Position numbers and translations under genes: made by a program. The notes beneath the pieces are model-generated. The model made no database searches, was not told the DNA's origin, and was given only the letters and a program-made list of their open reading frames with translations. A stretch of DNA of 41,317 nt from Escherichia phage vB_EcoS_HSE2: sequence record MG252615.1. One strand, 5' to 3'. Of the stretch, positions 5,367 through 35,193 are shown piece after piece (position 1 is the stretch's first letter; each line of letters opens with the position of its first letter).

Positions 5367-5651
5367 CTAACTATAATAGCTCGCTATTAGGGTGTCAACC
5401 TGTTTAAACGAACCGACGACAAAAACATTCGCACCACGTTTACGCATCCGCTCGTGCTCGCGTAACTGGTGCGGGTCAGGCTTCGTGTTTTCGTCTTTCT
5501 TAACCTCGACGAACCAGACGATGCCGCCTGGGAGAATTGCCAGCAGGTCGGGGGCGCCGGAACGTCCTTCGTAGGAGAGCTTACGAACGAGGCCGCCAAT
5601 GGCCTCGAATCGCTCTTTTGCGTATTTCTGAATCTTGCCTTCCGGGGTCAT
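5367..5651 (-). CDS. VRR-NUC domain nuclease (PD-(D/E)XK fold)
   Basis: GAPDLL...VWFVEVKK motif pattern, about 94 aa. Confidence 0.6.
   Translation of the reverse strand: MTPEGKIQKYAKERFEAIGGLVRKLSYEGRSGAPDLLAILPGGIVWFVEVKKDENTKPDPHQLREHERMRKRGANVFVVGSFKQVDTLIASYYS
5370..5398 (-). promoter_or_regulatory. Sigma70-type early promoter with palindromic operator in spacer
   Basis: Minus strand TTGACA, 17-nt spacer, TATAGT; spacer carries AATAGC-TC-GCTATT (plus-strand 5375..5388). Confidence 0.6.
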
Positions 5652-9150: not shown

Positions 9151-9179
9151 ACTATAATAGCTTACTATTCAGGTGTCAA
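9151..9179 (-). promoter_or_regulatory. Sigma70-type early promoter with palindromic operator in spacer
   Basis: TTGACA, 17-nt spacer, TATAGT on minus strand; spacer has AATAGC-TT-ACTATT (9156..9169). Confidence 0.6.
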
Positions 9180-9183
9180 CACT

Positions 9184-9675
9184 TTATTTGCCGTGGTTTT
9201 CGTGGAAACCGTACTTAACTTCTGCAGCCTTTCTCGCGGCTATTGCGTCGTCGATAGTTTCGAAACGTCCGAGATGAATTACTCGCTTCTTAACTTTTAT
9301 CTCAGCTCGCCATTTTCCGCGGCTTTTATCAAACCTAACACCCGTCACACCGGACGTGTTGTTGCGAGCTAAAGATAAATTACGGCTGTTCTCTTTTCGG
9401 GTTGTTTTCCTCAAATTAGAAAGAAGATTATTTTCTCGATTATGGTCGATATGGTCTATCTCCTCTCCGGGTTGAAGTTTATTTTCAGGCTTCATCATAT
9501 CCCATATAATTCTATGCGCCTGAAATGTCCTTCCGTGTAAACGGACGCACACATAACCCCAATTACGAACAGCAGCAACTTCGCTCCCGGCGGGCGCGCG
9601 ATTGCTGTTAGTTACGCGCCAATATAACTTACCAGTGTTGGTGTCATACCTAAAATAATCTCCCCATTTAATCAT
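9184..9675 (-). CDS. HNH homing endonuclease with C-terminal AP2 DNA-binding domain
   Basis: HNH motif IDHIDHNRENN...N; AP2-like GVTGVRFDKSRGKWRAEIKV...HLGRFETIDDAIAARKAAEVKYG; ATGA overlap with upstream gene. Confidence 0.75.
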   Translation of the reverse strand: MIKWGDYFRYDTNTGKLYWRVTNSNRAPAGSEVAAVRNWGYVCVRLHGRTFQAHRIIWDMMKPENKLQPGEEIDHIDHNRENNLLSNLRKTTRKENSRNLSLARNNTSGVTGVRFDKSRGKWRAEIKVKKRVIHLGRFETIDDAIAARKAAEVKYGFHENHGK

Positions 9676-10928
9676 TCCAAATCCTCCTCTGTTACCCCTT
9701 TCCACTCAGGTCGTTTGTCGTCTGCTGCGGCGATTGTCGGTCGACCAGGATTACGGATAATGAATTCCGTCAGTTCTTCTTCTGGGATAACTTTCACGGC
9801 TGCTGTAGGGGTAATGATTGACTTAGCCATAACTTTATCTCCAAATTTAGCAATAACTGCCTCTGGGTCCGCCCAGGAGCGATTGCCACCCCGCCCTTCA
9901 ACCAGTTTGTACCCCGGCACTTTCTTACCGGAATGCAACGCAGTAGCCATAGCTTTTTCAACCTTGTCGATGTGCTGGCGCAACAACGGCAACTTCTCAT
10001 ACTCAGCTACTAGTTGCTCCGGCGTAAGCTCAAGTGCAAAGTCGTCCTCCAGTTCTTCCGCCAGCACAGAATTAACCGTCTTTGTACGCGCGGCGCATTG
10101 TTCTGAGAACCGACACCACTGACAACCATCGACCGACGGTTTGAAATCCGACGCTTTAAGGTTCTTCTTACCGCGGAAATAAGCATCAAGCGCTAACAGC
10201 GCGCGTTTCTGTGCGAACTTAGCGAACAGTTCCAGACCTTCAACCGAGATGTCCCACTCCGACGCACCGCCCGCGTATGGCTGGAAGATGACCAGACGAA
10301 CCACGGTGATGTTATAACGTCTCTTGAGTCGGCGATAAACACCAAGAGCGTAAAGCATGAGCTGCTTGTTTTCTTTCGCTTCGACACGATGCCGTCCAGT
10401 TTTCAGGTCGCCGATAATGAGCATGTGCTCGTCGGAGTTAGCCAGTTCCCGCACGGCAACAAGGTCAGCCGTTCCGAACGTCTCAACGCCTTCGTACCCT
10501 GGGTGCAATACCTCAGTAAGATTGACGCGCATTTCCAGCTTGGCGTATGTCGCTACATCGATAATCGCTTTGCAGTAGTCGGTGTACTTTCGCACCTGTT
10601 CAATCATGTCCGCCGTAATCAGTACCGCACCTTTCATCGGGCTGATAAGCGCCTTAATCTGGCCTTTACCCTCATCCAGCACGTAAGTACCGACTTCGCG
10701 CTCTAACGGCAACGCAGTTCCGCGAATATAAGCGTTGAGGTGGACCTCCGCTATTGTGTGGCACGCGGTCCCTGTAACGGCGGATTTACCAGACGTGTTG
10801 GGGATATCTTTTTCGCATGCCAGTGATGCAGCACAACTCAGCCACTTTTTAGCACCTGACGGCGACAGTAAGGCGTGCACGTCATTATTGCCGCCGCGTT
10901 CTTTTAAAATCATGCCCTGTTCTCCCAC
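9672..10928 (-). CDS. PD-(D/E)XK nuclease, Cas4/RecB-like, with 4-Cys cluster
   Basis: DLKTGRH...E.K...QLMLYALG nuclease motifs; N-terminal Cys plus C-terminal CQWCRFSEQC. Confidence 0.6.
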   Translation of the reverse strand: MGEQGMILKERGGNNDVHALLSPSGAKKWLSCAASLACEKDIPNTSGKSAVTGTACHTIAEVHLNAYIRGTALPLEREVGTYVLDEGKGQIKALISPMKGAVLITADMIEQVRKYTDYCKAIIDVATYAKLEMRVNLTEVLHPGYEGVETFGTADLVAVRELANSDEHMLIIGDLKTGRHRVEAKENKQLMLYALGVYRRLKRRYNITVVRLVIFQPYAGGASEWDISVEGLELFAKFAQKRALLALDAYFRGKKNLKASDFKPSVDGCQWCRFSEQCAARTKTVNSVLAEELEDDFALELTPEQLVAEYEKLPLLRQHIDKVEKAMATALHSGKKVPGYKLVEGRGGNRSWADPEAVIAKFGDKVMAKSIITPTAAVKVIPEEELTEFIIRNPGRPTIAAADDKRPEWKGVTEEDLE

Positions 10929-11225: not shown

Positions 11226-11726
11226 TTATTCTTCTTCGAAATACTTGTTCTTGATCGCCGTCAGGCGTTCCAGGTACTCTGCCAGGTCTTCATCTTTAAT
11301 CGCGGCAATCTTCATCTTCTTACCGGTGAACTCTTCCAGCAGTTCGTCAGAATCGTCGCACGCGGCATCGCTTGGACCTTCGTTAATCGCATCGTCGATA
11401 GCCTGAATCTGGTCCCGAAGAGACTGGTAATCGACTTCTTCTTTCTCTTCTTCCGGCTCTGGCGTAGGCTCCTCTGCTTTAGCTTTACGCGGCTTGCGTT
11501 TAGGCTTCTCGTCTTCCGCCGGTTTAGTGTCGACGATGTTTTCACCTTCGACCGGGATTTCTTTTGTTGCTTCTTCGGTGCACTCGGCTACCGCTTCTTT
11601 GGCATACACTACCGTCTCTACTTCCAGCGGCGCGGCAACCTGAACAACCTGTTTCACACTGTTCGCAGCAATCAGTTCATGCGCAACTACGAAACGTTCC
11701 AGTAATTTCAGAAATTGTTCTAACAT
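11226..11726 (-). CDS. Highly acidic, low-complexity early protein (166 aa), first gene after the early promoter
   Basis: Glu/Asp-rich with PEPEEEKEE and C-terminal FEEE; promoter-proximal position. Confidence 0.5.
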   Translation of the reverse strand: MLEQFLKLLERFVVAHELIAANSVKQVVQVAAPLEVETVVYAKEAVAECTEEATKEIPVEGENIVDTKPAEDEKPKRKPRKAKAEEPTPEPEEEKEEVDYQSLRDQIQAIDDAINEGPSDAACDDSDELLEEFTGKKMKIAAIKDEDLAEYLERLTAIKNKYFEEE

Positions 11727-11757: not shown

Positions 11758-11786
11758 ACTATAATAGCGAACTATTCACATGTCAA
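11758..11786 (-). promoter_or_regulatory. Sigma70-type early promoter with palindromic operator in spacer
   Basis: TTGACA, 17-nt spacer, TATAGT; spacer has AATAGC-GA-ACTATT (11763..11776). Confidence 0.6.
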
Positions 11787-11790
11787 TGGG

Positions 11791-11819
11791 TTTTTCTAAA
11801 ATAATTAATATGGTACTAT
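11791..11819 (+). promoter_or_regulatory. Putative promoter of the XRE regulator gene with operator-like palindrome
   Basis: -10 TACTAT at 11814..11819, weak A/T-rich -35; AATATG-GT-ACTATT at 11807..11820; divergent from the early promoter. Confidence 0.4.
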
Positions 11820-11850
11820 TCGCATATCAACTAACTAAGGAGTAATTGAT

Positions 11851-12066
11851 ATGCAACCCTCTGAACTAGGCATCCGTGTAGAACAACGCCGCAAAGAACT
11901 CGGCATCTCCCAGCGCCGTCTGGCTGTCCTGACCGGCGTTTCCCAGGGCGCAATTAACCAGCTGGCACTTGGGGTAACTCAGGATGTCCGCCCGGCGACG
12001 CTGTTTAAACTGGCGGAAGTGCTGCAAGTAGACGCTAAGTGGCTGGCGTTGGGTGAAGGGGCTTAA
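11851..12066 (+). CDS. XRE-family helix-turn-helix transcriptional regulator (Cro-like, 71 aa)
   Basis: HTH signature ELGISQRRLAVLTGVSQGAINQL; AAGGAG Shine-Dalgarno; lone plus-strand gene inside minus-strand block. Confidence 0.75.
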   Translation: MQPSELGIRVEQRRKELGISQRRLAVLTGVSQGAINQLALGVTQDVRPATLFKLAEVLQVDAKWLALGEGA

Positions 12067-12081
12067 CGCCCCCTTTCTTTT
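12056..12081 (+). terminator. Intrinsic terminator overlapping the XRE stop codon
   Basis: Stem GGGGC/GCCCC with loop TTAAC, followed by TTTCTTTTT. Confidence 0.6.
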
Positions 12082-12084
12082 TAC

Positions 12085-14322
12085 CTATTCCAAATCCTCC
12101 TCTGTCACCACCAGCATTTCATTCGGTTCGTATATTGTCTTCGGCCTTAATCTATCCCCTATTCTTTCGGGTATACGATATGTTCTCGGTACTACTTCGC
12201 CGTTAGCATCGCAACCAAGCATTAGTTCTCCGTCTTTCAGCATTTTATCAAGATGGGTGTTAGTCACAGAAAAGTCACCGGAACGAGCCACTATCTGCTG
12301 CTGAGTAAAACCGCGACCTGTATCATCCGACTGTTGCAGGTCTTCCAGTGCCGAAAGTATTGACTCCTTCCTTACTTCATCCCTGCCGCGTTTAACTTCT
12401 TCCTTTACTTTTTCTTTACCTTTATCAGATAGCCCTTCTTCCCGCTCTTTCTCCTCGTCGGTCTTGAACGGTTCGAAACCCCACGGCATCAGCACAAGTG
12501 CCTTATGCGGCTCAGGAAGGTCCAGGTTTACGATTGTACCGTATTCCTCCGTGCTGCCCAGGAACTCAACCGCGCGGTATTCTTTCGGCGGCGGGGCTTC
12601 ACGGAACTGTACAGACTCAAGCACCATGCCGACGGTTTTCTGTTGAGGCCCGTGCTTAAATTTCGAGTGGTATACGTTTATCTGGCGGTCGGTAGCGCGT
12701 TCGATTGTCAGCTCGACGTCGACACCTGCATACAGTGCCCCGCTGCCACGGGCTTTCTTTCCACCCTTCGGCGTATGGTGGACAACGCCCACCGCGGCTT
12801 TAGTCGCATCACGTACTTCTTTCAGGATGGCGATAACTTTACCCATACCGATTGCCGTGGACGAACTGTTCTCGTCGAACTTATCAATCGTCAGGGCTAG
12901 CGTCTGGTTAAGGGTATCAAACGCGACCACCCCAATTGGCTCATCGCCAGCAGTTTCACGCATTAACTTAATCAGGCTTTTCAGTTTTCCGACTTCGCCC
13001 ATATCGATAACATGTACATAATCTTTACCTTCCTCGCCATATTTAGCCGCTAGCGCATCAATACGTGTACGTGTAGCTGCACCGCCTTCGCCATCGATAT
13101 AGAAATGGTGGCAACGCTGGGTATCCGCCCCTGCAAACCGGTATCCGGCGGCGCTCAGGTACATCATCCCCAGCGTATAGAATGATTTGTACGTACCAGA
13201 TTCACCGACAATATCCCATATGCAATCTGACGGCATGTAACCTTCTACTACGAAATCAGCCTTTACCGGTTCCGGTAGCTCGTCCTCTTCTGAGCCCTCG
13301 TCTTCCAGGTCGTCGAGGCTGCATGAAACAGATTCACGCGCACCCCATCCGATAGCCTCGGCGACTTCACTGAACGGCAGTCCGGTCGCATCACACGCGT
13401 ATTTCCACACTTCTTTCGGGGGCATTCCTTCGGTCGCGGCAATGTCGGTGTCGTGAATCATGGTTACGTTCGGCGCTTCGTATCCCTCGCGCGGGAAACA
13501 TAACAGGAAGTCGTCCGGGCGTGGTGTCGGGTCGCTGTAGTTTTCTGCGTGTTCTGGCGTAGCTGGCATCTTAAGGCCACGCGGCGTCATGATGCCGCCG
13601 TACTCGAATGCCAGTGCTTCAAACGCATCTGTAAACGCGGTGCGCAGTTCTTCCGGTATCTGGTAATCAGATGCGCTGCTGATGTCAACGGCTGGGACGC
13701 CTTCCAGTAACTCATCAGGGTCAATCAGGTCGTTGCGGCGCGACCAGATAACGGTAGCGCCGACAGGAGGCAAGTACATCGGCTGCGAAAGAGTGAACCC
13801 GCTGCGGTCGGCACCCATGCCTTTGAAGAAGTGCTCCAGTAATCCATGGCGAACACGGATGATGTTGCCGCCTTCGACCGGGCGGGCCAGCGGCATGACG
13901 ACGCGAAAGCGCGGGGCTTCGTCTGTGTGTGATGCCGTGGTATAGAGGCACATCGCCCGCCGGCTGCGCTTAACCAGGCGCACAGCTTCCTGATACTCTT
14001 CCAGGGTTGCACTGTCAAAGTCCAGGTACGCCAGCGACGATTTGCTTACAGACGCGTCGCAGCGATAGAAAAAGCCTTTACGCGCTTGCTTAAAGTCACC
14101 TGTTTCCGGGTCTTTTACGGTGCTGTGCGTAGAGTCGCACGCAGCGGTGATGTAACCAGGTGCGGTCTTCGGGTTAATTCCGTCACGGACAGCATCAAGC
14201 GGCTGGATTAAATCTTTCAGGTCGTCCAGCGTTGCCGTGTGTGTGGTTCTGACGTTTATATCCTTTTTCTCGGCCCGCGCGTTGCGACGAGACCACGAGT
14301 AGGATAAAATTACATCGGACAT
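12085..14322 (-). CDS. Primase-helicase (N-terminal primase-like region, C-terminal RecA-like ATPase)
   Basis: 745 aa; Walker A-like GESGTYKS and RecA/DnaB-like core in C-terminal half; replication-module position. Confidence 0.65.
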   Translation of the reverse strand: MSDVILSYSWSRRNARAEKKDINVRTTHTATLDDLKDLIQPLDAVRDGINPKTAPGYITAACDSTHSTVKDPETGDFKQARKGFFYRCDASVSKSSLAYLDFDSATLEEYQEAVRLVKRSRRAMCLYTTASHTDEAPRFRVVMPLARPVEGGNIIRVRHGLLEHFFKGMGADRSGFTLSQPMYLPPVGATVIWSRRNDLIDPDELLEGVPAVDISSASDYQIPEELRTAFTDAFEALAFEYGGIMTPRGLKMPATPEHAENYSDPTPRPDDFLLCFPREGYEAPNVTMIHDTDIAATEGMPPKEVWKYACDATGLPFSEVAEAIGWGARESVSCSLDDLEDEGSEEDELPEPVKADFVVEGYMPSDCIWDIVGESGTYKSFYTLGMMYLSAAGYRFAGADTQRCHHFYIDGEGGAATRTRIDALAAKYGEEGKDYVHVIDMGEVGKLKSLIKLMRETAGDEPIGVVAFDTLNQTLALTIDKFDENSSSTAIGMGKVIAILKEVRDATKAAVGVVHHTPKGGKKARGSGALYAGVDVELTIERATDRQINVYHSKFKHGPQQKTVGMVLESVQFREAPPPKEYRAVEFLGSTEEYGTIVNLDLPEPHKALVLMPWGFEPFKTDEEKEREEGLSDKGKEKVKEEVKRGRDEVRKESILSALEDLQQSDDTGRGFTQQQIVARSGDFSVTNTHLDKMLKDGELMLGCDANGEVVPRTYRIPERIGDRLRPKTIYEPNEMLVVTEEDLE

Positions 14323-14380
14323 GTTGTATTTCCTTCAGCAAGTAATTTGGCCTCGGCGTTCACCGCGTCGGGGCTTTCTT

Positions 14381-14614
14381 TTATTCCAGGTCTTCTAAAG
14401 TGGCTGCCATTCCGCGAACTTCTGCAACGGCGCTATATTTCCCGCCAACGTTTTTCACGACACCGGATTTAACCAGCACCTTTAACGACCCCTCAATAAT
14501 GGCGGAACTATAGTACTTAAAATAACTACGACGCAAGTCGATAACGCTGCACGACCCTTTTTTACGCGTCAACGAAACGACCGCCGTAAATACGCGTAAC
14601 TGGAACTCGGTCAT
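14381..14614 (-). CDS. Small winged-helix-like protein (77 aa) ending in TLEDLE
   Basis: ORF between HTH gene and primase; C-terminal motif shared with two other replication proteins. Confidence 0.45.
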   Translation of the reverse strand: MTEFQLRVFTAVVSLTRKKGSCSVIDLRRSYFKYYSSAIIEGSLKVLVKSGVVKNVGGKYSAVAEVRGMAATLEDLE

Positions 14615-14781
14615 TTTACATTCTCCTTAATCCACGCCTCTACTTTCTCCGGGTCAAATGTACCTGGCTGCCGGCGCCCCATAATGCGGATACAACAATC
14701 CGGGAACTTACCGCTCTTTAACCAGTTATTCAGCGTGCGACGAGTAACCCCGATACGCTCTGCTACCTCGTTCTGTGTCAT
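14611..14781 (-). CDS. Small HTH DNA-binding protein (AlpA/excisionase-like fold), first gene of the primase operon
   Basis: MTQNEVAERIGVTRRTLNNWLKSGKFP; GAGG Shine-Dalgarno 8 nt before ATG at 14781. Confidence 0.55.
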   Translation of the reverse strand: MTQNEVAERIGVTRRTLNNWLKSGKFPDCCIRIMGRRQPGTFDPEKVEAWIKENVK

Positions 14782-14813
14782 TCTCAAACCCTCATTATCA
14801 GTTAACGAAACCA

Positions 14814-14842
14814 AGTATACATTGCGAATAATGGGAAATCAA
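14814..14842 (-). promoter_or_regulatory. Sigma70-type promoter for the primase operon
   Basis: Minus strand TTGATT, 17 nt, TATACT. Confidence 0.5.
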
Positions 14843-14857
14843 ACATAATTGCACCTA

Positions 14858-14886
14858 TTGACATTATGAAAATCTTCGTTTAAGAT
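14858..14886 (+). promoter_or_regulatory. Sigma70-type promoter pointing into the noncoding region
   Basis: TTGACA, 17 nt, TAAGAT; divergent from the 14814..14842 promoter. Confidence 0.45.
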
Positions 14887-15129
14887 GCTTCTATATCTTA
14901 GTTACTTTGATTCCTGTTCACCTTGTAAGAATGTTTAACCCGTGCGTCAAGCAAAGGGTTAAACACAGGCTTACTGAACATGAGAATTATCGTAACTTTC
15001 CTTCCTAAGTATCTCCGGTTGCCCTGGGCAAGCTCTATTCTCATCGGCGGCATATCTCTTAAGTATCTGATTTTCTTAATGTGCCGTAGATTCGCAACCG
15101 TAAAAATGTAACGATTATTGGGCAGGCTT

Positions 15130-15153
15130 AAGGCCTGCCCTTTAGTTACCAAG
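15130..15153 (+). terminator. Hairpin terminator-like element in noncoding region
   Basis: Stem GGGCAGGC/GCCTGCCC, loop TTAAG, then TTTAGTT. Confidence 0.4.
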
Positions 15154-15222: not shown

Positions 15223-15251
15223 TTGCACACCCCAACATAATAGGTTACTAT
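15223..15251 (+). promoter_or_regulatory. Middle-class promoter (conserved 30-nt family) with operator palindrome
   Basis: TTGCAC-ACCCCAACATAATAGGT-TACTAT; palindrome AATAGG-TT-ACTATT (15239..15252). Confidence 0.6.
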
Positions 15252-15370
15252 TCACTTATCGAGGCGAGGCAGGGAGCCAACCTTTAATAAGGTCAGTAGC
15301 GGCGACGAGCATACGAAGAGTCGATAAGCCCGGTAAGCAGAACCTAAATTAACTAAGAGAGAAAAGCTGG

Positions 15371-16270: not shown

Positions 16271-16405
16271 CAGGTCAATAGGTTACTATTTGACTGAGTG
16301 ACTTACGCTGCTACACAGCAGCGTACAACTTTAGATTAGTGTCGTCAAAAAGCGACACTTTCACCGAACGCAACAATAGAAGCGATTATTGCAGGAGATG
16401 CAACA

Positions 16406-16576
16406 ATGAAACTGAATGACATCGTGACCTGGGCCGGTAGAAACGGAGAAAAGCGATTCGGGCTTATTGTTGCGTCAGACGGCAACAAGTACCGTGTTAT
16501 GCGATGGCGTCAGTGGGCGCGACGCCCGAGGTACTACTGGATTCGCAGTGAACGATTATCTTTAAAACACCAATAA
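16406..16576 (+). CDS. Hypothetical basic protein (56 aa)
   Basis: Hand-translated ORF preceded by GGAGA. Confidence 0.35.
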   Translation: MKLNDIVTWAGRNGEKRFGLIVASDGNKYRVMRWRQWARRPRYYWIRSERLSLKHQ

Positions 16577-16583
16577 AATTTAC

Positions 16584-16612
16584 TTGCACACTAAGATAGA
16601 ATAGGCTACTAT
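16584..16612 (+). promoter_or_regulatory. Middle-class promoter with operator palindrome
   Basis: TTGCAC, 17-nt spacer, TACTAT; AATAGG-CT-ACTATT (16600..16613). Confidence 0.6.
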
Positions 16613-16643
16613 TCATTTACACAAACGAGAAGAGAGACAGAAG

Positions 16644-16811
16644 ATGAAAGCAGTAACTAAAGATGAGTTTTTCAGCACAGTAGAAGGTCTTATGTATCAC
16701 ATGGTTATTAATGCGGGTACGCCAGAGTCTATCTACATAGATAGCGGTAATAATCTTGTCGCTAAAGCAACATGGGGTTACCCGGAAACTTTGTATGAGG
16801 TTGCGCAATGA
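16644..16811 (+). CDS. Hypothetical protein (55 aa)
   Basis: Hand-translated ORF; ATGA overlap to next gene. Confidence 0.35.
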   Translation: MKAVTKDEFFSTVEGLMYHMVINAGTPESIYIDSGNNLVAKATWGYPETLYEVAQ

Positions 16812-19594: not shown

Positions 19595-19616
19595 ATCTAT
19601 TTTCTGTAATGACTAG

Positions 19617-19645
19617 TTGACTATTACCTACGACCCTACTATATT
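19617..19645 (+). promoter_or_regulatory. Sigma70-type promoter for the small-gene chain
   Basis: TTGACT, 17 nt, TATATT. Confidence 0.55.
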
Positions 19646-20534: not shown

Positions 20535-20703
20535 GCCAGTAGTTATCGATGGCGTCCTGTGGAAACCTTACTCGGTTAACCACATCGACGCCGACGGGAA
20601 GAAGTTCAGCTTCTACATTTTTGCAATTAGCCGTGAGCACGCCGCCTGTGTGGTAGATGATATACGAGAAACGGCGTGGCTTGGTGATGAGATAGTGGGG
20701 TGA
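20521..20703 (+). CDS. Hypothetical small protein (60 aa)
   Basis: ORF track; start chosen at internal ATG. Confidence 0.35.
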   Translation: MGSPEPVVIDGVLWKPYSVNHIDADGKKFSFYIFAISREHAACVVDDIRETAWLGDEIVG

Positions 20704-20705
20704 GT

Positions 20706-20876
20706 ATGTTCAGTGACATTAACGCAGCAATCGAAGAAGCAATCTGGCGTCGCTACAACGGCGAGCAGCAACGGCACTTTTGCCTTGTGCAACGTGGGAA
20801 CATGATTGCCGTAGTGCAGGACCGCGATAACAAATATCCGAATGCGATGTGGACAACGAGGAATTTCTTAGGATGA
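20706..20876 (+). CDS. Hypothetical small protein (56 aa)
   Basis: Hand-translated; ATGA coupling to next. Confidence 0.35.
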   Translation: MFSDINAAIEEAIWRRYNGEQQRHFCLVQRGNMIAVVQDRDNKYPNAMWTTRNFLG

Positions 20877-26285: not shown

Positions 26286-26354
26286 TATGAACATCGCGGT
26301 GATAGCCGCAGCCGATACCCACAAAACAAAATAAAACATCACACTATTTGTCAT
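26283..26354 (-). CDS. Hydrophobic peptide (23 aa), third gene of lipoprotein cassette
   Basis: Verified by hand: MTNSVMFYFVLWVSAAAITAMFI; ATGA overlap with lipoprotein stop. Confidence 0.25.
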   Translation of the reverse strand: MTNSVMFYFVLWVSAAAITAMFI

Positions 26355-26695
26355 TTGCATTTCTCGTCGTATGTTTGTTGTAACTGCGACAGACGATTAC
26401 CGGCTGTCATCTCGTCCATAGAAGGCCCGGCGCCCGTGTCCATAAAGAACAGCGGAACAATCAGGAATGCGCCTGTAACACCGAGTACAACGTTAGTACC
26501 TATTTGCTTATTAACACGGTGCGTAGCGTTGGCTTGAGCTTGTTTTGTCGTGGCGATTCTCGATAGTAACTGATTACATGTTGCCGTTGTATCCCCTGCC
26601 TGATAAACCTGTAAAGCCGGGTCTGGCAACGACCTTACGCAACCACTCAAACAAACGGCTACAACACCCGCTACTGCTAATTTAATATATTTCAT
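26351..26695 (-). CDS. Lipoprotein (114 aa) in a moron cassette; candidate superinfection-exclusion / receptor-masking factor
   Basis: Signal peptide with lipobox L-S-G-C; opposite strand to flanking head genes; own promoter and terminator. Confidence 0.55.
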   Translation of the reverse strand: MKYIKLAVAGVVAVCLSGCVRSLPDPALQVYQAGDTTATCNQLLSRIATTKQAQANATHRVNKQIGTNVVLGVTGAFLIVPLFFMDTGAGPSMDEMTAGNRLSQLQQTYDEKCK

Positions 26696-26793: not shown

Positions 26794-26820
26794 GACGGCC
26801 TCCTCGGTTCGATAGAATGA

Positions 26821-26849
26821 ATAGTACCCTATTATATTGGGGTGCGCAA
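26821..26849 (-). promoter_or_regulatory. Middle-class promoter driving the lipoprotein cassette
   Basis: Minus strand TTGCGC-ACCCCAATATAATAGGG-TACTAT; 30-nt core identical to the promoter at 35165..35193. Confidence 0.6.
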
Positions 26850-26915
26850 ACTATTTGTTTATGTATTCCAGTTATTCCACCAAATTGTAAATATTGGAAT
26901 AAACTATTCGAATAG

Positions 26916-26944
26916 TTGACTTTTCACCAAAAATGTGCTAAGCT
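26916..26944 (+). promoter_or_regulatory. Sigma70-type promoter preceded by 16-bp palindrome AACTATTCGAATAGTT
   Basis: TTGACT, 17 nt, TAAGCT; palindrome at 26902..26917. Confidence 0.45.
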
Positions 26945-33306: not shown

Positions 33307-33777
33307 CTACTCATGGTTTTCATGGAAACCGTATTTACTCTCGGCGGCTTTACGCGCAGCAACCGCTACATCAAAATCGTCGTAAAGCCCTAAATGCACT
33401 TGTTTGTAGTTAACTTTTATAAACGCGCGCCACTTACCCGCGGCTTTGTGGAAACTTACGCCTGTAGCCCCGGATTTATTTATCTTTCGCATAGTTTTAT
33501 TTTTACTGTTCCCTGTATTGTCGGTGGCGCGTAGATTTTCTATTCTATTGTCTAGCCTGTTATGGTTTATGTGGTCTATTTGAGTTTTCCTGTCTAAGTT
33601 GCATTTATTATAAAGACACCATGCTATGCGGTGGACATACACTGTTTTACCACCCATACCGCAGCACAGATAACCTCTTACACCAACCGTACCAACCTCA
33701 GCACCAGTAGATAACCTGGTAACCCTCCCAGTCTCAGGGCAGTATTTAAATTGTTTTGAAACATCAAGATATTTCAT
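33307..33777 (-). CDS. HNH homing endonuclease with AP2 domain (paralog of 9184..9675)
   Basis: HNH motif IDHINHNRLDNRIEN; AP2-like GATGVSFHKAAGKWRAFIKV...AARKAAESKYGFHENHE. Confidence 0.75.
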   Translation of the reverse strand: MKYLDVSKQFKYCPETGRVTRLSTGAEVGTVGVRGYLCCGMGGKTVYVHRIAWCLYNKCNLDRKTQIDHINHNRLDNRIENLRATDNTGNSKNKTMRKINKSGATGVSFHKAAGKWRAFIKVNYKQVHLGLYDDFDVAVAARKAAESKYGFHENHE

Positions 33778-35149: not shown

Positions 35150-35164
35150 TGTTGGTGTAAGTGA

Positions 35165-35193
35165 ATAGTACCCTATTATATTGGGGTGTGCAA
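35165..35193 (-). promoter_or_regulatory. Middle-class promoter driving the Imm/phosphoesterase/HNH cassette
   Basis: Minus strand TTGCAC-ACCCCAATATAATAGGG-TACTAT; transcription start only about 9 nt before the Imm ATG. Confidence 0.6.

Follow-up and report, generated by a model that had tools for sequence, protein, structure and literature searches.

The sequence record MG252615.1 of Escherichia phage vB_EcoS_HSE2 comprises 41,317 nucleotides, and this whole stretch, numbered from its first letter on one strand, is referred to here as the window. The window was classed as a virulent siphophage of the genus Kagunavirus (subfamily Guernseyvirinae, genome size ~41-45 kb). Members of the Guernseyvirinae (Kaguna-, Jersey-, and Cornellviruses) rank among the most frequent phage isolates for the biocontrol of Salmonella and E. 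coli, and the "transcriptional repressor" gene that they carry is regularly singled out as a potential marker of lysogeny. In the window this gene, xre, lies back to back with a strong leftward promoter, P_L1. A dyad, O1, lies in P_L1 and a second one, O2, in the xre promoter, P_xre. An earlier, sequence-only reading had described the locus (11758-12081) as a local, two-operator timing switch of the lytic cycle. More than 440 phage records match a 1.5-kb stretch around the xre locus. The best matches are the E. coli Kagunaviruses EM1, XY1, NTEC3, and BASEL Bas70-76 (~92-93% identity to this query); Salmonella Jerseyviruses are 80-90% identical to it.

The xre gene and its promoter region

xre encodes a 71-aa Cro-like helix-turn-helix (HTH) protein, XRE, which matches the Pfam family HTH_3 (PF01381) with E=1.1e-12 and 48.2 bits against a cutoff of 23. 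The best solved sequence relatives of XRE are 434 Cro and the N-terminal domain of the 434 repressor (E ~7e-6). An AlphaFold2 model computed from the single sequence (pLDDT 82) contains five helices, and its top Foldseek matches in the PDB are 2cro, 1pra, 3cro, and P22 c2 (TM 0.67-0.80 overall, 0.71-0.77 for 2cro and 1pra); HipB, HigA, CapH, and C-proteins are also among the fold matches. By this model, which is a prediction and not a solved structure, XRE is predicted to adopt a five-helix fold like that of 434 Cro and P22 C2.

Among 34 alleles, the variable columns of xre number 12, 2, and 52 at the three codon positions; therefore, the plus-strand 71-aa frame is a real gene. Synonymous variants were found at 56 codons and non-synonymous variants at 11, and xre is, judged from these substitutions, under purifying selection. 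The sequence-only reading had placed xre as the sole plus-strand gene in a minus-strand block, and no other credible plus-strand gene was found between 3715 and 14814. xre is monocistronic, with its own promoter and terminator, and its neighbours are on the opposite strand. The gene was found subfamily-wide, in 540 phage records, where it is labelled "transcriptional repressor", "DicA", or "hypothetical protein", or is omitted. In the Bas74 record (L006) xre is unannotated, and a 31-aa open reading frame (ORF) is called on the opposite strand instead (20667-20762). No functional study of this gene was found in literature searches.

The positions of both dyads were confirmed from the sequence (Table 1), but their spacing had been put at 20 bp, and the actual gap is 30 bp (44 bp centre to centre). 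O1 and O2 each lie within a copy of a 25-nt direct repeat (11762-11786 and 11806-11830). The divergent early promoter of the sequence-only reading was recovered as P_L1, which agrees with the sigma-70 consensus at 11 of 12 positions and is among the three best sigma-70 matches of the whole window; a conserved leader, AAACGAGAGGAGAGA, and an ATG follow downstream. An operator-like dyad had been proposed for each side. Both were recovered: O1, a perfect dyad in the P_L1 spacer, and O2, a weaker one on the predicted xre -10.

O2 deviates from the dyad at position 5, where T replaces G; this change supplies the TG at -15/-14 of P_xre, and the extended -10 makes up for the poor -35. P_xre looks like a degenerate form of the class B promoters described below, to judge by its identical geometry, and the homologous place in Jerseyviruses reads TTGCGT-17-TACTAT. 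Another candidate for the xre promoter, TTCACA-16-TAAAAT (11775-11802), was rejected as the main one because its -35 is not conserved and Jerseyviruses support TACTAT with a -35 of its own. The second repeat copy can also be read as a leftward promoter, TTGATA-18-AATTAT (9/12), which has a weak -10 and is regarded as a remnant. The xre leader contains an inverted repeat at 11822-11854 (GCATATCAACTA / TAATTGATATGC, 92% complementary) whose loop contains the Shine-Dalgarno sequence and whose stem contains the AUG. This repeat is partly conserved in relatives and may affect translation.

At the other end of the gene, the xre terminator includes its own stop codon and faces the convergent primase gene, as had been noticed earlier; the TAA (12064-66) is within the 3' arm of the hairpin, and the primase gene ends at 12085. 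For phage fBC-Eco01, ARNold gives a predicted terminator at the corresponding position. On the minus strand the hairpin has no U-tract and is not a terminator leftward. Antisense read-through of the primase operon into xre is therefore expected, which makes the earlier suggestion of such read-through plausible. The orientation of the primase module is inverted between genera: it is convergent with xre in Kaguna- and Jerseyviruses, and in Cornellviruses the helicase-primase gene is co-directional with and downstream of xre (SP-031, L004, 11098-13749; SE1, L005, 4112-7002).

Table 1. Features of the xre locus, dyad-bearing sites, and neighbouring genes in the window.
Feature	Position	Strand	Description
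xre	11851..12066	+	71-aa Cro-like HTH_3 protein; recognition helix GVSQGAINQ
O1	11763..11776	.	AATAGCGAACTATT, perfect 5-N4-5 dyad AATAG-CGAA-CTATT in the P_L1 spacer, roughly -25..-12
O2	11807..11820	.	AATATGGTACTATT, imperfect dyad AATAT-GGTA-CTATT, 9/10 half-site positions; overlaps the predicted -10 of the xre promoter
P_L1	11758..11786	-	class A; -35 TTGACA 11786..11781, -10 TATAGT 11763..11758, 17-bp spacer
P_xre core	11811..11819	+	extended -10 TGgTACTAT; -10 TACTAT 11814-19; poor -35 TTTTTC 11791-96
xre ribosome-binding site AAGGAG	11837..11842	+	8 nt 5' of the start; conserved in relatives
xre intrinsic terminator	12045..12082	+	hairpin 12045-12070, 10-bp stem, -16.2 kcal/mol, then T-run CCCTTTCTTTTT
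class A dyad promoter	5375..5388	-	64-aa gene, then DNA helicase gene
class A dyad promoter, TTGACA-N4-AATAGTAAGCTAT-TATAGT	9156..9169	-	gene for gp2.5-like single-stranded DNA-binding protein (SSB), then DNA polymerase gene
class B dyad promoter, TTGCAC-N10-AATAGGTTACTATT	15239..15252	+	-10 TACTAT inside the dyad; rightward small accessory genes
class B dyad promoter	16600..16613	+	hypervariable set of small genes
class B dyad promoter	26820..26833	-	114-aa gene of unknown function (26695..26351)
class B dyad promoter	35164..35177	-	SbcD-like DNA repair exonuclease gene and HNH gene
perfect dyad without recognisable -35	16277..16290	.	hairpin downstream
one-mismatch dyad ACTAG-TTGA-CTATT	19612..19625	+	overlaps the -35 of TTGACT-17-TATATT
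one-mismatch dyad AATAG-TTGA-CTTTT	26911..26924	+	overlaps the -35 of TTGACT-17-TAAGCT, upstream of capsid genes
helicase-primase gene	12085..14322	-	convergent with xre, 3' end at 12085
Xis/AlpA-like HTH gene	14611..14814	-	head of the primase operon, which starts near 14842
166-aa gene	11726..11226	-	first gene behind P_L1; exonuclease and HNH genes next

Distribution of the dyad in the window and in related phages

The dyad AATAGNNNNCTATT (AATAG-N4-CTATT), allowing at most one mismatch, occurs 13 times in the window against 0.95 expected, and none of 100 shuffles reached 13. For exact copies the count is 8, with 0.05 expected. When 5-mer dyads are compared at every spacing from 0 to 8, AATAG-N4 is a clear outlier and by far the commonest. 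Seven of the eight perfect dyads overlap a sigma-70-type core promoter, either in the spacer or at the -10. The dyad also lies at seven or more promoter or intergenic sites outside the xre locus, at distances of up to 23 kb from it. The earlier picture of a self-contained local switch was given up for this reason, and the locus appears as one node of a genome-wide regulon.

The dyad promoters fall into two classes. Those of class A (5375, 9156, and 11763, all leftward) read TTGACA-N4-AATAGnnnnCTAT-TATAGT, with the dyad in the spacer at roughly -25 to -12, and are the three best sigma-70 matches in the window (11/12). Those of class B (15239 and 16600 rightward, 26820 and 35164 leftward) read TTGCAC-N10-AATAGGnTACTATT, with the dyad on the -10 at roughly -19 to -6; the -10, TACTAT, is formed by dyad positions 8-13 and is 17 bp from the -35. 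In both classes the conserved leader, the ribosome-binding site, and the ATG follow at the same distance, which supports the promoter assignments. The genes behind these promoters are listed in Table 1; the P_L1 operon comprises a DUF2800 exonuclease and an HNH endonuclease. The one-mismatch dyads at 19612 and 26911 are possibly weak operators.

Three side observations concern individual dyad sites. The dyad at 16277 lies just past a stop codon and the motif GGTGTAACAGGT, which is duplicated in some relatives, and is followed by the hairpin TACGCTGCT-acac-AGCAGCGTA (window 16277-16325). This arrangement is kept in ~9 distinct relatives, and a roadblock and a terminator-linked operator are both possibilities. 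At 16560-16645, a ~70-bp cassette of -35, dyad, -10, leader, and ATG is near-identical in more than 30 Kagunavirus contigs (L007-L043). At least 15 different first genes were found behind it, which identifies the cassette as the mark of a mosaic junction or of a hypervariable accessory region. In XY1 and Bas70, an extra 75-aa gene is inserted directly behind P_L1.

A scan of IMG/VR with the XRE alignment returned 60 loci. In 37 contigs of Kagunaviruses and 11 of Jerseyviruses, exact dyads are syntenic, with relative positions near -6.5 kb, -2.5 kb, -88 bp, +3.5 kb, and +4.8 kb. Among 35 unique intergenic sequences from Kagunaviruses, O1 is invariant at all 10 of its half-site positions and the -10 and -35 essentially so, and variation was seen in three of the four bases of the O1 centre and in the 3-4 bases between O1 and the -35, an indel included. 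This portion of the spacer is not one that RNA polymerase reads, and polymerase contacts do not explain the conservation of CTATT within a promoter spacer. O2 is near-invariant in Kagunaviruses (9/10 match) and matches at 8/10 in Jerseyviruses, with a left half-site weaker still. Jerseyvirus jersey has the same dyad in five promoters, and the Jerseyvirus homologue of the 19612 site reads AATAG-TTGA-CTAGT. The distance from the dyad to the -35 is N4 in class A, N10 in class B, and N7 at a Jerseyvirus site (L003:5213), which is the homologue of the 35164 site with the dyad in a different register. Since the dyad sequence is kept while its register against the -35 shifts, the dyad is an element separate from the -10 and -35.

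In the Cornellviruses SP-031 and SE1, XRE is ~40% identical and has the helix TQSAISH. Exact AATAG-N4-CTATT is absent from both genomes. At equivalent promoters, these phages show a ~ten-fold enrichment of AWTAS-N4-STAWT, as well as TATTA-N6-TAATA (3 against 0 expected). Because the Cornellvirus dyads are only relaxed or shifted, the case for covariation of helix and site draws on very few lineages.

More distant homologues of XRE were found at loci with related dyads. Five of these proteins are longer than XRE (150-230 aa; L058, L059, L062-L064), and one has 72 aa (L066). Dyads of the form ATTAG/AATAG-N4-CTAAT cluster upstream of the regulator gene at all these loci, and further copies lie beyond it in four of the six. 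At the two loci studied in detail (L058 and L062), the repressor has 229-230 aa and a C-terminal domain of the LexA/S24 type, and its gene is divergent from a Cro-like one of 83-88 aa. A second IMG/VR scan, keyed on the helix GV[ST]QG[LAT]IxQ, gave 33 non-Kagunavirus loci. The closest helix-sharing relatives outside the Guernseyvirinae are long repressors (150-413 aa) in 23 of 23 cases, and ATTAG/AATAG-N4-CTAAT lies within 250 bp upstream in every one of them. Most of these 23 loci also have, past the immunity genes, an OL-like dyad pair spaced by ~25 bp. The total is 64 dyads in 160 kb, against 0.6 expected. The homologues of phiP27, Stx1 phage, Mannheimia, Meifeng, and Acinetobacter served as negative controls; they have different helices and no AWTAG dyads. 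Operators of other kinds accompany those of phiP27, the Stx1 phage, the Mannheimia phage, and Meifeng; Hafnia phage Meifeng combines a 434-like QQS helix with ACAG-N6-CTGT operators.

The prophage-like IMG/VR contigs L072-L094 (GC 49-62%) hold an uncharacterised clade of long CI-type repressors whose operators are arranged very regularly. Upstream of cI, at a distance of ~55-90 bp (-30 in one contig), lie one or two ATTAG-N4-CTAAT sites, and in most contigs a pair lies beyond the immunity genes, usually ATTAGTTTCCTATT and then, 25 bp later, ATTAGnnnnCTAAT. No characterised phage turned up in this temperate CI clade, the best named matches being VarioGold (44%) and 434 (31%).

Proposed regulation and alternative explanations

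We consider it probable, with moderate confidence, that XRE is a 434-Cro-type global repressor of a virulent Kagunavirus that acts by negative feedback through an AATAG-N4-CTATT operator in at least eight sigma-70 promoters. The recurrence of the dyad beside homologous repressors is good associative evidence, not proof, that XRE reads it. XRE most likely binds the 14-bp dyad as a dimer. As operators, O1 should act strongly on P_L1 and O2 weakly on P_xre, and weak autoregulation of xre is the best reading of the imperfect site at its own promoter.

From the anatomy, statistics, conservation, and homology given above, we infer binding, repression, and timing as follows. XRE would be made from the weak promoter P_xre and build up. 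Its dimer would occlude RNA polymerase at the perfect dyads of class A and class B promoters, and O1-bound XRE would shut down the strong divergent P_L1. The operons repressed would be those of the helicase, the SSB and polymerase, the exonuclease, the repair nuclease, and the small accessory genes. The net result would be negative feedback on DNA-metabolism and accessory transcription as XRE rises, akin to Cro lowering PL and PR in lambdoid lytic growth. Because the O2 mismatch makes the TG of the extended -10, autorepression would occur only at higher XRE levels, at which O2 would be filled and synthesis of XRE limited. The dyad-free primase operon has no leftward terminator behind it and is probably transcribed antisense through xre, which may lower xre expression.

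Several points weigh against this model. Nine of ten more distant proteins with a GV[ST]QG.I.Q helix are not accompanied by the dyad, and the Jerseyvirus helix differs (SQSLITH) while the half-site is the same; thus, the helix motif alone does not predict the site. The assignment of regulator to operator is by association, and the second small HTH protein (Xis/AlpA-like) and host factors are other candidate binders. Beyond its 14-bp core the motif is asymmetric (TG AATAG...CTATT AT), and the ~70-bp cassettes look like duplicated modules, so that part of the similarity could be due to common descent. The xre terminator hairpin is no more stable than shuffled sequence (z = -1.08). In the sole RNA sequencing (RNA-seq) time course of a Kagunavirus, the expression class is early for the AlpA-like gene, middle for xre, and late for the DNA polymerase gene, with gene identities taken from gene order (_004 = xre, _005 = primase, _008 = AlpA-like HTH). 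A "middle" xre and a "late" polymerase gene behind a dyad promoter give no support for early shut-off. The samples were taken from 5 to 120 min of an asynchronous infection with a 30-min latent period, and sampling this coarse neither supports nor excludes the model. The "timing switch" of the sequence-only reading is therefore unproven.

That the dyad is real and has another reader is conceivable but unlikely in our view. The reader could be the Xis/AlpA-like HTH protein encoded in the early leftward operon, a host protein, or RNA polymerase, which would recognise the motif as a phage-specific signature, and XRE would act elsewhere or locally. The genome paper on fBC-Eco01 reported seven PHIRE sites with the consensus tgAATAGTa-ccTATTat-T, called them promoters for a "phage-encoded RNA polymerase", and did not connect the motif to the HTH gene. 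The second HTH gene does exist and appears, by gene order, to be one of four early genes in the RNA-seq data; the asymmetry of the extended motif and the unchanged site beside a changed Jerseyvirus helix also speak for another reader. However, no phage RNA polymerase is annotated in the examined stretch of the fBC-Eco01 record or in the other relatives examined, no sigma factor appears in the annotations of the relatives examined, and the promoters have ordinary -35 and -10 hexamers. The register shift against the -35 speaks against direct reading by polymerase. In addition, a 5-N4-5 palindrome suits a dimer of the Cro/CI type and not Xis-type proteins, and the dyad stands beside homologous CI repressors of unrelated temperate phages in 23 of 23 cases.

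The layout of the locus, in which O1 and O2 flank back-to-back promoters 44 bp apart as parts of a 25-nt direct repeat, speaks for a divergent switch timing only the neighbouring early operon, the other copies being incidental. We regard this as very improbable, since the perfect copies are far in excess of expectation (8 against 0.05), are conserved and syntenic in two genera, and sit in promoter cores in seven cases; moreover, the distal sites match better than O2. XRE could also be mainly a relic or a weapon: a stand-alone CI N-terminal domain inherited from a temperate ancestor, an agent of a carrier state or of cross-immunity to superinfecting Kaguna- and Jerseyviruses, or a regulator of the antitoxin or defence type. 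Its nearest relatives outside the subfamily are CI repressors, HipB, HigA, CapH, and C-proteins are among its fold matches, and an operator common to two genera would let XRE act in trans on incoming relatives. This explanation seems improbable to us. No toxin, restriction-modification, or defence gene adjoins xre, and neither an integrase nor an S24 domain was found; the essential replication promoters of the phage itself carry the operators, and all strictly lytic isolates have the gene. Immunity in trans would be a by-product of the same binding and not an alternative to it.

A broader evolutionary reading of XRE as a global repressor is a speculation to which we give little weight. In this view, the DNA-binding part of a temperate-type CI repressor may have persisted in a strictly virulent lineage, and its operator may have been carried to almost every strong early or middle promoter by a portable ~70-bp cassette (-35, operator, -10, leader, and ribosome-binding site) that marks mosaic junctions at which accessory genes are exchanged, with cross-immunity in trans. 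As Kaguna- and Jerseyviruses share the operator, XRE would act in trans between co-infecting relatives. If this is true, plasmid-expressed XRE would block plating of Kaguna- and Jerseyviruses, and not of Cornellviruses.

The main use of these results is in annotation, safety assessment, and engineering of this phage subfamily. Reading the "repressor" as a Cro-like feedback regulator that has a definable regulon and no lysogeny module helps safety assessment, and it corrects the published "phage RNA polymerase promoter" label and the genome records that omit xre. The phage offers a compact model of transcription control in a virulent siphophage dependent on host polymerase. Its operator-bearing promoters are phage-engineering parts that should be repressible in trans by a 71-aa protein.

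Neighbouring features and comparison with known systems

The 166-aa protein encoded divergently from xre is acidic, has no Pfam domain, and belongs to phrog_3127 (unknown function). The promoter of the operon of the AlpA-like HTH and primase genes, near 14842, is dyad-free. The sequence-only reading had found no integrase and no long CI-like repressor, and both absences held up. No integrase is listed in annotated relatives ~92% identical over the 1.5-kb query region, and the fBC-Eco01 genome paper states that none is present; all ORFs of 300-480 aa in the window were given other functions by PHROG matches or by position against annotated relatives. No long XRE ORF or long CI partner was found in the ORF list of the window. 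Rfam and tRNA scans of the window gave no match.

HNH-type endonuclease ORFs at 9184-9705 (-) and 33307-33777 (-) are inserted in replication/repair operons, and one of the two has an AP2-like C-terminal region. They are present in some relatives and absent from others, which fits homing endonucleases. TTGACA-17-TAAGAT at 14858-14886 (+) resembles a strong rightward promoter. No convincing ORF was seen in the next ~230 nt, which lead to a GC-rich hairpin and T-run at 15120-15150 (+). The annotation of fBC-Eco01 shows the same "host promoter ... terminator" layout. This stretch (14858-15150, +), which has no Rfam match, could give a short early transcript, either a small RNA or one for a micro-peptide. 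Between the minus-strand primase and 77-aa genes lies a plus-strand hairpin and T-run (14349-14385, GGCCTCGGCG...CGGGGCT TTCTTTTATT), which would terminate only antisense, rightward transcripts.

The locus was compared with several known systems. A lambdoid immunity region has a long LexA/S24 repressor, and the gene divergent from xre encodes the 166-aa protein without a Pfam domain; it has three adjacent operators plus OL, and here two sites lie 44 bp apart and the others are dispersed; it comes with an integrase or another lysogeny module, and none is listed in the annotated relatives; one Xis-like HTH is present in the window. An XRE-type antitoxin such as HigA or HipB was rejected because no toxin is co-transcribed with the monocistronic xre. 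The C proteins (C.AhdI, C.BclI, and C.Esp1396I), which are among the fold matches, are small dimers of the XRE family that serve as delay or feedback devices, but xre has no adjoining restriction-modification genes and no C-box architecture.

In the "stoperator" system of mycobacteriophage L5, a temperate phage, one repressor, gp71, has many genome-wide sites. Those sites are asymmetric, orientation-dependent 13-mers inside transcription units, whereas the dyads of this virulent phage are palindromes in promoter cores. The long CI clade (L072-L094) resembles XRE in the helix GV[ST]QG.I.Q, in 43-62% identity over the DNA-binding domain, and in ATTAG/AATAG-N4-CTAAT operators. XRE differs from it in being the DNA-binding domain alone. 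At the two loci studied in detail, the long CI repressors have a LexA/S24 domain, a Cro-like partner, and clustered OR-/OL-like operators ~24-25 bp apart.

The proposed role of XRE is like the lytic function of lambda Cro, in which a small repressor made early exerts feedback both on strong early promoters and on its own production. Unlike lambda Cro, which has a different fold, XRE would act without the bistable choice against CI and on many more target promoters. The likeness to 434 extends further. XRE shares with 434 Cro and the 434 repressor N-terminal domain (2cro, 3cro, and 1pra) the five-helix HTH_3 fold, with 36-41% identity in fold alignments, and 434 Cro also has 71 aa. The 434 operators are 14-bp dyads that overlap promoter cores, as do the putative operators of XRE, and the Gln at the start of the recognition helix is conserved between the two. 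The half-sites differ, being AATAG with a 4-bp centre for XRE and ACAA with a 6-bp centre for 434. In contrast to 434, xre has no cI partner and no tripartite OR/OL, and its putative operators are dispersed over at least eight promoters of a virulent phage. Overall, this is an ordinary kind of system, a classical pair of the Cro/CI type, and what is new is the proposed link between this regulator and its operator.

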